From the NCBI GenBank assembly GCA_963708185.1, contig OY970195.1:576001-640000 (forward strand): a stretch of DNA of 64,000 bases, written 5' to 3'. The notes beneath the pieces were generated by a model. The model was not told where the DNA came from. It was given only the letters and a program-made list of their open reading frames with translations, and made no database searches. The position numbers and the translations under genes are program-made. This document shows positions 548 through 20,101 of this stretch, in pieces. The stretch's first letter is position 1, and each line of letters starts with the position of its first letter. Source of the DNA: Candidatus Peregrinibacteria bacterium. Lineage in GTDB: Bacteria; Patescibacteriota; Gracilibacteria; UBA1369.

Positions 548-2884
548 TCAGTAGTTGAAGACGAAATAGGCCCAGTTGGACGGACAGTCCGCGCTCACCG
601 AGAACGATCCGGGGTTGGTCTTGAGAAGGACGTACCCCGTCGTGTAGATCGCTCCGTAGAGATCGGGTTCCAGCTTCGGCGCCGGTCCGGGAGAAGGAGC
701 CGAAGGAGCGCACTTGAAGTAGACGCTCAACGGCCCCGTTCCCGAAGCGAACGTGAAGTCGACGGTCTGTCCGGGAGTGAGGTTGATTGCGACCCCGACA
801 TCGTCATTCGGTGAAGTGTTGACGGTGAAGGGGGTGCTCTGGCAGGTAGTGTCGTCCGATGACGAATCTCCGAGGATGACTCCGTAGTGGAGATGAATCA
901 CCTTGGTACAGGTGCCCGCTTCGATGCAGGTACCCGTGGTAGACGAGCAGGGACCGCCGGCATCGCTGCCGCCGCTTCCTCCCGAACCCGAGCTACCACT
1001 GGAACCGCCGGAACCGCTGGAGCCGGAGCTCCCGCTCGTTCCACCGGAACTGGTACTTCCGGCTGCACCACTGCTTCCGGCAGTGCCTCCGCTTCCGCCG
1101 CTTCCGGCATCTGCAGGAACACACATGTCGGTTGCAATGTCGCAGACCGTACCTGCTCCGCAGGCGCCTCCACAAGGAAGGCCGCCATCAGAGCCGCCCG
1201 CACCACCACTACCGGATGCGCCCCCACTGCCGCCGCTGCCGGCGTCAGATGGGACACACATGTCGGTCATGGTGTCGCAGACGGTGCCAGCTCCGCACTT
1301 TCCGTCACACGGCAAGACGAGGTCGCACAACCCCGTCATCGTGTTACAGACCGTACCGAGACCGCAGTGACCGCCGCAAGGATCTCCCCCGCCGCTGCCA
1401 CTGGACCCCGAACTGCCGCTGGAACCGCTGGAGCCGGAGCTCCCGCTAGATCCAGCACTGCCACTCGTGCCGCCGCTGCCTCCGGATCCGGAGGTGCAGA
1501 CACCCAGGGTGACGTTGCACGTCGTCCCTGGGCCGCATGCGCAGCTGCACGGATCCATGGCCGGGGTGCACGAACCGGCATCGCTGCCGCCCGCGCCTCC
1601 CGTTCCGGATGAACCAGATGAACCGGAAGAGCCGCCGCTGCCGGAGCTTCCCCCGGTGCCGCCGCTGCCTCCAGATCCGCCGGAGATATCGCACAGCCCC
1701 GTCATGGTGTTGCACACCGTGCCGGGGCCGCACTTATTCCCACAGGGATCGGTTCCTCCGCCGGAACCGCCGCTTCCGCCGCCACCCATATCCCGGTAGC
1801 AGTCGTTGTCGACGATTCCGTCGCAGTCGTTGTCGATGTGATCCCCGCACTCCTCCGGGCCCGTAGGCACGCAGATGCAGAGCGGAAGACCGTCATCAAC
1901 CTTGTTGTTGCAGTCGTTGTCGCGACCGTCGCAGACTTCGGGCATGGGCGAGCCCGGGATTGCGTCGCAACGGGTTGCCCAGGGCCCGTCGCAGATCACC
2001 TTGCCGAAGGCAAGGCAATCCCCAACGCCGAGAGTGCAGGGAAGGTTCGTCCCCCAGCCCTCGTCGATGAGGCTGTTGCCGTTGTTGTCGATACCGTCAC
2101 ATTTCTCGGCAACACAGAGCTTCGTGACGGGGTTGCAGACGGTGGTGCTTCCACAGACGCCGCCGCAGGGATCGCTCCCCGAGTCGCCGCCGCTTCCGCT
2201 GTCACCGCCAGTTCCGGAGTCGCCCCCGGTGCCGGCGTCGGACCCGCCCGTTCCTCCATCGCTGGATTCACAGGTGCAGGTCGACGTGTTGCAGTGGGTT
2301 CCCTGGCCGCAGTGGTTGTTGCAGTTGTTGCAACTCCCGCCGTCGGTGTTGGGAACACACTGTCCGTTGAGGCAGGTCGTGCCGGAGCCACAGTGGCCCC
2401 CGCAGTCCCCGCCGCCGTCTCCGCCCGGTACGCATTGCTTTGTATCCGGGTCGCAGACGGTAAGGGGTGGAGCGCAATGCCCTTTGCAGGGATCGCCTCC
2501 GCCGCCGGTCTCGCACTTGCCAGTATCCACGTTGCACGTGGTCCCGGAGGCGCAATGACCGCCGCACGGATCTCCACCACCCGCGACGCACTTGTCGGTC
2601 GCGACGTCGCAGGTGGTTCCGGGAGCGCATTTGCCGTTACAGGGATTGCTCCCCGGCGGCAAACACTTTCCGGTGTTTTGATCGCAGACGGTTCCGGGGC
2701 CACACGTGCCCTCGCAAACGTCCACGCCGCCCTCTCCGGTTCCGGAGCTTCCTCCGGTTCCGGGAGGGCATTGCCCGTTGAGGCAGAAGGGATGGTCTCC
2801 CTCGCTGCTGCATCCCACCGCGATAGCGATGGGGGCGAACAGTGAGAGTACCACCCACTTCCACCGCCTACGCGGTGAATACAT
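548..2884 (-). CDS. Cys/Gly/Ser-rich repeat lipoprotein with MopE-like (CDGxDNxC) motifs, myxobacterial style
   Basis: Signal peptide + AVGC lipobox; many DPCGGxCGxGTxC-like repeats, GGSGG linkers, three ExCDGxDNDCxGxxDxG-like motifs; start set at ATG 2884 because GGAG lies 6 nt upstream. Confidence 0.8.
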   Translation of the reverse strand: MYSPRRRWKWVVLSLFAPIAIAVGCSSEGDHPFCLNGQCPPGTGGSSGTGEGGVDVCEGTCGPGTVCDQNTGKCLPPGSNPCNGKCAPGTTCDVATDKCVAGGGDPCGGHCASGTTCNVDTGKCETGGGGDPCKGHCAPPLTVCDPDTKQCVPGGDGGGDCGGHCGSGTTCLNGQCVPNTDGGSCNNCNNHCGQGTHCNTSTCTCESSDGGTGGSDAGTGGDSGTGGDSGSGGDSGSDPCGGVCGSTTVCNPVTKLCVAEKCDGIDNNGNSLIDEGWGTNLPCTLGVGDCLAFGKVICDGPWATRCDAIPGSPMPEVCDGRDNDCNNKVDDGLPLCICVPTGPEECGDHIDNDCDGIVDNDCYRDMGGGGSGGSGGGTDPCGNKCGPGTVCNTMTGLCDISGGSGGSGGTGGSSGSGGSSGSSGSSGTGGAGGSDAGSCTPAMDPCSCACGPGTTCNVTLGVCTSGSGGSGGTSGSAGSSGSSGSSGSSGSSGSSGSGGGDPCGGHCGLGTVCNTMTGLCDLVLPCDGKCGAGTVCDTMTDMCVPSDAGSGGSGGASGSGGAGGSDGGLPCGGACGAGTVCDIATDMCVPADAGSGGSGGTAGSSGAAGSTSSGGTSGSSGSSGSGGSSGSSGSGGSGGSDAGGPCSSTTGTCIEAGTCTKVIHLHYGVILGDSSSDDTTCQSTPFTVNTSPNDDVGVAINLTPGQTVDFTFASGTGPLSVYFKCAPSAPSPGPAPKLEPDLYGAIYTTGYVLLKTNPGSFSVSADCPSNWAYFVFNY

Positions 2885-3136
2885 CGTTTTCTCCATGTGC
2901 CGGTCGTCACCGGCGTCGAAATTCCTCCGCAGGTGCGATCGTCATCGCAGCGGATTCACACTTTGCGCCGACCGTATTGTCTGGCGCGATGTTCTTGTTG
3001 GTAAACGATCGCGCCATAGTCGGCGACGTTGGTTGAGGTTGAGGTTTTGCATTCCCCGCGGGTGACGGATGTCGAATCCGTAAACCCGCGGGGTGCGCGA
3101 GGTGCCGTCTCAATTCCTTGCGGAAGAGCCGGCGGA

Positions 3137-19313: not shown

Positions 19314-19393
19314 AACACTTTTCGGAGCGGCTCTGCCGTTTCCATGAAGTTTGCAAATTTTGCGGTACCTAAGGGGCCGCGGAGGATACAGTC

Positions 19394-20101
19394 ATGAAAA
19401 ATCTGATGTCGATGGTTGTGACGGTTTTCGCTGCTCTTTTCGTTATCGGGGCGCTTGGAATCGGTTCGTTGGGGTGTGACAATCCCAAGGACCAGGACCG
19501 GACGTCCCAGGACGACAAGATCACCCCGGCCCAGCAACAGGCTGTGGACCGGTACATGCAACAGGAAGGCCGTCCAGGGTTCAGGTCTTCCGATCCCAGC
19601 TGGAGCGATCGCGCAAGCTATCGCTACCATCAAGCTGCCGATGCGGTGCATTCGGGTGCGGTCACCTTCGGACGATTCGTCGCGATGGTGGTGTTCCACG
19701 TTCTGATGCTCCTTATTCCCCTGCTGGTCATCAGCTTGATCCCCGGCTTTGCGGCCGGAAAGTTCGAGATGTCGATCGAAGGGGCGATCCTGGTGGCTGC
19801 GGGCGTTGTTCTGCTCATGGCCAACTGGATCGGTGTCCTCAACCTGCAGTTCTGGGTCTGGGCATGCCTCATCGTTCCTGGTGGAGCACTCTTTGTCGTC
19901 TCCTTCTTCGCGAAAGAAGGGGCGTGGAAGATTCTGCTCGTCATGGGGCCACCGGTGCTCATGGTGCTCTTGGGATTGCTCCGCATCGTCGACGCCTACA
20001 TGTCGGCACTCGTTACCGGCAGTCTCTTGGCTATCGTGGGCGGGGTTGTCGCAGTCTACTACATCGCCGAAGGCGATGAGAAGGAGCACGCACACGGTTA
20101 A
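19394..20101 (+). CDS. GC-rich lipoprotein-signal multi-pass membrane protein
   Basis: GGAGGA 7 nt before ATG; SLGC lipobox; about 5 TM helices. Confidence 0.8.
   Translation: MKNLMSMVVTVFAALFVIGALGIGSLGCDNPKDQDRTSQDDKITPAQQQAVDRYMQQEGRPGFRSSDPSWSDRASYRYHQAADAVHSGAVTFGRFVAMVVFHVLMLLIPLLVISLIPGFAAGKFEMSIEGAILVAAGVVLLMANWIGVLNLQFWVWACLIVPGGALFVVSFFAKEGAWKILLVMGPPVLMVLLGLLRIVDAYMSALVTGSLLAIVGGVVAVYYIAEGDEKEHAHG

Follow-up and report, generated by a model that had tools for sequence, protein, structure and literature searches.

The window of DNA analyzed here (64,000 nucleotides, positions 576001-640000 of contig OY970195.1) belongs to the genome of a Candidatus Peregrinibacteria bacterium, a small, uncultured member of the candidate phyla radiation (CPR), and carries at its left end a cluster of GC-rich genes for predicted secreted proteins and lipoproteins that are preceded by Shine-Dalgarno (SD) sequences, in a genome in which most genes start without one. 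We consider it probable, if well short of certain, that two modes of translation initiation operate on one and the same ribosome in this organism: an SD-less mode that relies on unstructured start regions and would serve the majority of mRNAs, and an SD-led mode that would serve a conserved minority of ~1-2% of genes. The genome is a single contig of 1,437,033 bases (49.8% GC) and is 99% complete. Its 1258 genes were called with a self-trained hexamer model of our own, with iterative refinement of the starts and with no curated annotation.

SD motifs are scarce at the starts of these genes. SD 4-mers are present at positions -18 to -4 of 8/239 unambiguous ATG starts, compared with 12.1% of 6861 internal in-frame ATGs; among all model starts, an SD core of at least 4 nt is found in 35/1258 and a duplex with the 16S rRNA tail of -6 kcal/mol or lower in 74/1258, compared with 12.7% and 26.5%, respectively, of 2600 internal ATGs. 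The overall SD share is ~3-6%, depending on the criterion, and ~16-20 genes (1-2%) look SD-led. SD words occur in the SD window of 38/1258 starts but in 94 and 121/1258 equal windows further upstream of the same genes, and thus SD motifs are avoided at the ribosome-binding position rather than merely absent. The same holds for a second species (G002), in which a 400-kb sample gave an SD at 1/57 starts vs 101/702 internal sites. At native starts G falls to 4-10% at -16 to -4, C or T occupies -1 and -2 of 85% and 72% of unambiguous starts, respectively, and U-richness is seen at -12 to -16; the positional profile of starts has no A preference at -3, and the upstream-adenine signal of Bacteroidia was not seen in it. 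The motif TAnnnT peaks at -39 to -27 of starts, and weakly at -15 to -12, so that most genes would have short leaders and a few mRNAs may be leaderless. A preliminary description of the window had quoted native, SD-less starts for rplS, rplA, nusG, folD and secE, with weak purine runs before purD and rplK; all coincide with our predicted starts, and NCBIfam/Pfam matches confirmed the names of the genes.

The same description had quoted SD sites before three genes of the window, and all three are there. These sites, with the genes and leaders to which they belong, are as follows (coordinates are those of the window):

1..196, minus strand: start of g934, which belongs to the cluster and has an ordinary GC content (0.55), a native pyrimidine-rich leader and no SD.
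548..2896, minus strand: P0001, a 782-aa lipoprotein (GC 0.65) with Cys-rich CxxCGxGTxC repeats, Gly/Ser linkers and MopE-type motifs.
2894-2891, minus strand: GGAG, 6 nt before ATG 2884 of P0001.
2897..3136, minus strand: conserved, hairpin-rich intergenic leader of ~240 nt between P0002 and P0001.
3137..4276, minus strand: P0002, a secreted protein of 379 aa with a signal peptide (GC 0.65; GC at third codon positions, GC3, 0.86).
4290-4283, minus strand: SD-like GAAAGGTG (AGGTG core), 6 nt before ATG 4276 of P0002.
4277..4980, minus strand: conserved, hairpin-rich P0002 leader of ~700 nt, or a separate non-coding RNA (ncRNA), which runs into P0002.
5015-5010 and 4995-4986, minus strand: consensus-type promoter, with TTGACA and an extended -10 element TGGTTATAAT, respectively, invariant in four species; the transcription start is inferred.
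19381-19386, plus strand: GGAGGA, 7 nt before ATG 19394 of P0003, with a hairpin at 19362-19380 directly upstream.
19394..20101, plus strand: P0003, a 235-aa lipoprotein or membrane protein (GC 0.58) with no Pfam match.

All three sites have at least 4 nt of complementarity to the tail of the organism's own 16S rRNA, and their spacings of 6, 6 and 7 nt lie within the range of ~4-12 nt. The P0002 start at ATG 4276 is backed by orthologue alignment. GC-rich, SD-bearing genes of similar type occur outside the window: g562, just to its left, encodes a lipoprotein with CxxCGxGTxC Cys-rich repeats and Gly/Ser linkers like those of P0001, and g890, g181 and g1219, located elsewhere in the genome, encode proteins of the same Pro/Gly/Ser/Cys-rich secreted kind.

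The claim that only the GC-rich genes have SD sites held as an enrichment but not as a rule. Among genes above 58% GC, an SD core of at least 4 nt is present in 5/15 and a duplex of -6 kcal/mol or lower in 9/15, against 30 and 65, respectively, of the 1243 others, so that SD usage is not similar in native and GC-rich genes, and two initiation styles do coexist in one genome with the SD style concentrated in its GC-rich genes. The strongest SDs of the genome, however, precede genes of ordinary GC content (PDH E1-beta, GAAAGGAGG; a pilin-like gene, GAAAGGAGG; a lipoprotein gene, AGGAGG; UDG, GGAGG), with perfect SDs of 8-9 nt before normal-GC genes, and native-style leaders without an SD are also seen in the 86-96 kb region, at several genes with a GC content of 57-59%. 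Across all genes, SD strength is not correlated with GC3 (Spearman rho -0.026, p 0.36). There is also a contrast inside the cluster: g934, of ordinary GC content, has the same leader, ...cccccaaacctATG, in G002, native and SD-less in both species checked.

The ribosome of this organism appears able to read such sites. The single 16S rRNA gene retains a canonical 3' end (...GGATCACCTCCTTTCT) that includes CCUCC, the anti-SD that the preliminary description had proposed to look for, and the same tail is found in 6/6 family genomes examined, with C or T at one position; its core matches that of E. coli. The same description had suggested that the GC-rich genes are tuned to another ribosome population; with one rRNA operon and one canonical tail, such a population is unsupported. 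No match to bS21 (PF01165) was found in this 99%-complete genome, in a search that matched only 6/14 named control genomes, some of them archaea; a survey of CPR ribosomes likewise reports bS21 absence for Peregrinibacteria (PMC9297842). With an intact anti-SD and no bS21 match, the ribosome should still be capable of SD pairing. The genome also has an S1-like gene, whose score of 249 bits falls short of the equivalog cut-off. The release factor gene prfB, considered as a test of anti-SD use, gave no information: RF2 is encoded in a single open frame (G000:C1:1130861-1131916, in genome coordinates), and the programmed +1 frameshift site is absent.

Orthologues provide the main evidence that the SD tracts matter. 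Upstream sequences were inspected by eye for tracts, defined as at least 4 nt complementary to the 16S rRNA tail and located 4-12 nt ahead of the start; such a tract is present at the right distance in 26/27 orthologue starts of seven gene families. These are P0002 (4/4 orthologues; AGGTG, GGAG, AGGT and GAAAGG, at -5 to -17), P0001 (4/4; GGAG, AGAAAGG, GAGGTGAT and AGGAGG, at 5-9 nt), g562 (3/3 resolved orthologues), P0003 (3/3 species, in which a stem with compensating changes is followed by ...GCCGCGGAGG, containing GGAGG), g890 (3/3 resolved; AAGGAG after a GCGC-UUCG-GCGC hairpin), the pilin-like g534 (5/5) and PDH E1-beta (4/5 genus genomes). The words change from species to species but stay complementary and in place, as would be expected of functional SD sites. 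By contrast, four-fold degenerate sites are near saturation: identity at these sites is 0.34-0.58 in flanking genes vs 0.30-0.37 expected from composition, and 0.29-0.48 vs 0.34-0.45 in P0002, and thus neutral sequence has largely turned over since the species split. Judged against that turnover, the tracts appear to have been kept by selection beyond neutral expectation. Across the family, whose genomes, like those of the order, measure 0.8-1.9 Mb throughout, a near-perfect SD (duplex -15 or lower) precedes PDH E1-beta in 7/14 genomes belonging to four genera, and the other seven have a native A/U-rich leader.

Start regions differ in predicted folding in the same sense. Mean folding energy (dG) over -30 to +30 is -5.97 at the 1258 starts vs -11.89 at 679 internal sites, and the average for 14 SD-bearing genes is -10.7, close to that of internal sequence. 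Within strata of upstream GC, SD cores are present at 13/160 structured starts vs 20/930. SD-less mRNAs are reported to be less structured at the start (PMC3121790), and the structured, hairpin-laden leaders with SDs described here fit the rule by which an unstructured start is required of SD-less mRNAs but not of SD-led ones.

From these observations we propose that most mRNAs of this organism would start without an SD by means of short, G-poor, weakly folded leaders, probably aided by an S1-like protein, and that ~1-2% of genes would use SD pairing, with the GC-rich genes as the largest group. The latter would comprise the genus-specific, fast-evolving surface-protein cluster (P0002, P0001 and g562) and, elsewhere, P0003, g890 and g181. 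Their GC-rich, hairpin-filled leaders could not offer an unstructured start region, and would therefore rely on SD-anti-SD pairing on the same ribosomes that translate the majority; structure would then be the reason for which the SDs have been retained.

Several points weigh against this proposal. The numbers are small, as there are 15 genes above 58% GC and several of these are short or doubtful open reading frames (ORFs), and the 14 SD genes of the folding comparison were hand-picked after inspection of the data. The link between structure and SDs is partly circular, because G-rich SD motifs themselves raise predicted folding. All starts are those of our own predictor and uncurated; this predictor disfavors G-rich upstream regions and had misplaced the start of P0002 (3137-4276) until it was corrected from the orthologue alignment. 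The orthologues, which come from four to five related genomes, do not count as independent cases, and the leaders around the tracts are conserved in general; the tracts could owe their conservation to another role, for example in RNA structure or protein binding. Of the four tracts before P0002, two (AGGT and GAAAGG) are weak or spaced at 10-12 nt. The SD of PDH E1-beta is not obligatory, given the seven of 14 family genes that lack it, and it lies in or next to the coding end of the upstream gene, which may itself constrain the SD. The sensitivity of the bS21 search cannot be judged from 6/14 controls, and a search of sequencing runs found no RNA run that contains the locus, only one soil DNA run with a small share of its words.

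The age of the cluster bears on where its composition came from. The order P0002, P0001, g934, g562, between rnhB/pyruvyl transferase and two conserved genes, is shared by the four species with assembled loci; the cluster is thus syntenic in 4/5 genus genomes (the fifth being 90% complete and in 220 contigs), and was not found outside the genus. Protein identity is ~39-88% in the flanks (mostly 60-88%) and roughly 29-47% in the cluster. Only 2/718 two-kb bins of the genome exceed 58% GC, both at window positions 1-4000. Cluster GC3 is high in every species (0.68-0.91), and AAG makes up 0.74-0.92 of Lys codons in the cluster vs 0.27-0.54 in the flanks, also in every species, with GAG preferred in three of the four; in the present genome AAG is 0.74 vs 0.32 in native genes and GAG 0.60 vs 0.26. 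Much of the GC excess reflects amino-acid composition (Gly, Ala, Ser, Cys and Thr), and GC at four-fold sites is 0.60-0.82 in native genes vs 0.77-0.92 in P0002. High expression was considered as the cause of the GC3 excess and was rejected in part: C-ending codons track the ribosomal-protein region, but AAG and GAG run opposite to it. No tRNA adjoins the cluster, the nearest being at 21472, and there are no mobility genes among the neighbors scanned (rnhB, rplS, pyruvyl transferase and trigger factor), where direct border repeats were not searched. A search of 5.8 billion protein clusters gave no donor homologue; the Atlas gave weak leads to Myxococcota, with scores of 0.80-0.87, below the level of evidence. 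Of the features by which a recent genomic island would be recognized, the cluster therefore has atypical composition, whereas no mobility gene was found among the scanned neighbors, no adjoining tRNA, no patchy presence and no donor.

The products of the cluster are themselves confined to the genus. Full-length relatives of P0001 were found in the genus only (4/4), its match to Pfam PF11617 is just below the cut-off, and its Atlas leads are to MopE proteins of Myxococcota (score 0.80). P0002 has no Pfam match and has homologues in 3/4 other genus genomes and 0/36 genomes of other genera; only seven proteins matched at E<=1e-3 among the 5.8 billion protein clusters, and metagenome scans for further relatives and for an invariant 21-nt word of its leader found nothing. 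P0003 has orthologues in 2/4 genus genomes. In the AlphaFold model of P0002 (mean pLDDT 62), an N-terminal Ig-like beta-sandwich is followed by a C-terminal 8-stranded barrel like that of OmpA/OmpX/Ail (residues 194-378; pLDDT mostly ~68-86 per 10-residue block, with two blocks near 50). The best PDB matches are Ail, OmpA, OmpX, NspA and OprF (E 9e-6 to 3e-4; target TM 0.45-0.70), and the sequence ends in F, a C-terminal aromatic residue as in outer-membrane barrels; the C-terminal half is thus predicted to have an OmpA/OmpX/Ail-type barrel fold. No match to Omp85/BamA (PF01103) was found in this 99%-complete genome, in a search that matched 7/14 control genomes, which we take to be the diderm ones. 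CPR bacteria are not known to have an outer membrane into which such a barrel would insert.

The leader of P0002 is a candidate for a new large leader or ncRNA. Aligned across four species, it averages 65% identity per column and contains long invariant blocks; its length varies from ~550 to 710 nt (positions 5282-5955, 5360-6003 and 5437-5997 of loci L006, L007 and L008, respectively), and it contains a 28-bp helix with variable loop insertions and is present as a single copy in the genome. RNAalifold predicts 149 pairs, 13 of them with double changes; in the covariation analysis of these four sequences only one pair had a double change, and shuffled alignments reached the score in 53/500 cases. 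The leader has no Rfam match, and an E-value scan of 4200-5200 gave chance-level hits; a covariance model built from it (R1) matches 4/36 family genomes, all within the genus. The leader at 2897..3136 (alignment A5) likewise averages 65% identity per column, and its conserved inverted repeats include a cUUCGg-type loop.

A distant origin of the cluster in a GC-rich diderm, for example a myxobacterium, with transfer into the ancestor of the genus and retention of the signals by selection or GC-biased gene conversion, is in our view a possibility to be taken seriously, although we hold it to be less likely than not to be correct. The confinement of the cluster and its leader to the genus would fit such an event, as would the Cys-rich motifs of MopE type and the presence, in a genome that gave no Omp85 match, of a barrel fold characteristic of diderms. 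The Cys-rich extracellular proteins of Peribacter, which are clustered and strain-variable and have very faint similarity to Myxococcus repeat proteins (PMC4736985), would fit as well. No donor was found, however, the Atlas scores are below the level of evidence, and the GC excess is largely one of amino-acid composition, in a genome where four-fold sites have a high GC content in native genes, too. This scenario concerns the origin of the genes and is compatible with two initiation modes on one ribosome.

The SD-like motifs could instead be a by-product of composition, in that the regions upstream of GC-rich genes are not depleted in G and would contain GGAG-type words by chance. Upstream G is indeed 0.26 for GC-rich genes vs ~0.11 for the others, and the excess of SD cores in these 15 genes is modest relative to internal ATGs, 12-13% of which already have such cores, with 26.5% forming a duplex of -6 kcal/mol or lower. 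The motifs are nevertheless specific in position (5/15 in the SD window vs 1 and 1 of 15 in the upstream windows), they recur at the right distance in orthologues in different words, and perfect 9-nt SDs precede genes of normal GC content; we accordingly find chance composition improbable.

Similarly improbable, in our estimation, is an SD-led regulon read by a distinct state of the ribosome (a 30S subunit without S1, or one in which the 16S rRNA tail has been freed), comparable to the bS21-free ribosomes of Flavobacterium. Conservation of the anti-SD while SDs are avoided elsewhere would be in line with this, and there is a precedent in Bacteroidia (PMC9976891, PMC13000453). The genes with SDs of at least 5 nt also lean toward the envelope, as 9/16 encode an N-terminal hydrophobic segment vs 377/1242 of the others (Fisher p 0.03). 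That enrichment is weak, however, and falls to 4/8 (p 0.2) for SDs of at least 6 nt; the cytoplasmic PDH E1-beta and UDG are also strongly SD-led, and the known switch is missing in so far as bS21 was not found. A more far-reaching version treats the cluster as a separate "expression dialect" read by a different translation state, perhaps a distinct form of the ribosome, with the ~700-nt leader as its control element and, at the far end, products that are made for or act in a diderm host, given that the cell which encodes the barrel protein P0002 is expected to lack an outer membrane and gave no match to BAM machinery; we regard this as more doubtful still.

We credit least of all the reading of the GC-rich genes as recent horizontal cargo, with SDs that are decaying relics of a GC-rich, SD-using donor, an alternative that the preliminary description had named as one that would refute its own view: it would account for the atypical composition, Lys and Glu codon preferences opposite to those of native genes, the Myxococcota leads and a barrel in a genome with no Omp85/BamA match, but it is argued against by synteny in four species, by the retention in every species of GC3, AAG preference (GAG in three of four), hairpin leaders and SD tracts, with no sign of decay, despite four-fold sites near saturation, and by the lack of an adjoining tRNA, of a mobility gene among the scanned neighbors and of a donor.

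Additional observations were made on these genes and their surroundings. P0001 has a second in-frame ATG at 2896, with GGTGA 10 nt upstream, and either start is possible. Twin in-frame ATGs 12-18 nt apart are found in P0001 (window 2882-2896) and in g691 (G000:C1:1402929-1403678); in both, the first ATG follows a native-style leader and the second follows an SD inside the intervening codons (AAGGAGGT in g691, GGAG in P0001), and dual-mode starts are possible at both genes. At G000:C1:455000-457300 (L019), two adjacent GC-rich, Cys-rich paralogues share a C-terminal domain with P0001; parts of their N- or C-termini resemble out-of-frame Gly/Ser repeats, so these may be frameshifted or decaying copies, and in one of them GGGAGGT directly precedes a lipoprotein-type start. 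Within the window, two large ORFs at 10355-16034 (660 and 1175 aa) have a GC content of 0.43-0.44 and a GC3 of 0.40-0.41 with essentially no family match, and form a second compositional outlier, opposite in direction to the GC-rich cluster. The lowest-GC stretches of the genome are at about 1366000-1380000 and 1408000-1414000 of G000:C1 (33-39% GC in 2-kb bins). An Rfam scan of the window at the gathering score detected two tRNAs and nothing else.

SD-independent initiation through unstructured starts, combined with an SD-using subset of genes, has been described for plastids, cyanobacteria and many bacteria (Scharff et al., 2011, PMC3121790). As in those systems, most genes here are SD-less with weakly folded starts, internal AUGs are more structured, a subset has SDs and the anti-SD is retained. 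Here, however, avoidance is extreme, as seen in the G content at -16 to -4 and the C/T bias at -1 and -2. The SD-bearing subset is very small, is dominated by a GC-rich, genus-specific surface cluster and includes very long conserved leaders. In Bacteroidia, "SD-blind" ribosomes sequester the anti-SD by means of bS21/bS18/bS6, and rpsU is the one strongly SD-led gene (PMC7797042, PMC9976891, PMC13000453); in Flavobacterium, bS21-free ribosomes translate the SD-bearing rpsU (PMC9976891, PMC13000453). The organism studied here shares with Bacteroidia a canonical anti-SD that is kept though SDs are hardly used, and a few genes with strong SDs. It differs in having no bS21 match and a U/C-rich sequence upstream near the start in place of the upstream adenines that Bacteroidia use for start-codon selection (PMC13000457), and in that its SD-led genes are envelope and metabolic genes rather than rpsU.

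Closer relatives offer a comparison in both respects. For Ca. Peribacter riflensis, of the same class as the present organism, 7% of genes were reported to have SDs, compared with ~3-6% here, and the species was filed under "lacking a conserved CCUCC" (PLoS One 2024, PMC10783764, Table 4), whereas CCUCC is present in all six family genomes examined here; the available part of that paper is silent on which genes keep SDs. SD scarcity was therefore already on record for that species. The cluster proteins resemble the large, Cys-rich proteins described as extracellular in Peribacteria (Anantharaman et al., 2016, PMC4736985) in having signal peptides or lipoprotein signals, in their Cys-rich, clustered and strain-variable character and in their faint likeness to Myxococcus proteins, but they are shorter (341-785 aa); the available text of that study makes no mention of GC excess, codon usage, leaders or SDs ("ribosome binding" has 0 occurrences).

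Messenger RNAs for major envelope proteins, such as those of ompA and S-layer genes, have long structured 5' leaders. The P0002 locus is like these in its strong promoter and in the long hairpin-rich leader with an SD before a surface-protein gene, and unlike them in that its leader, at ~550-710 nt, is far longer and may be a separate ncRNA.

These findings have a practical consequence for annotation, in that gene finders trained on the SD-less majority misplace the starts of SD-led genes, as our own predictor did. The persistence of the anti-SD where SDs are hardly used calls for an explanation outside Bacteroidia, and the CPR organism described here represents a second, unrelated lineage, apparently without bS21, that combines strong SD avoidance with a small, conserved set of SD-led genes; this set provides a concrete list of mRNAs with which to test for a free, functional anti-SD. 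The findings also correct a tempting inference, as the combination of high GC content and SDs does not mean recent foreign cargo here. Rather, the genes form an old, genus-wide, fast-evolving surface cluster that has retained its own codon usage and leaders through speciation. Because neutral sites are near saturation, the persistence of this codon usage needs a force, which must be other than mutational, and which could be selection on properties of the mRNA or GC-biased gene conversion in a recombining surface-antigen locus.

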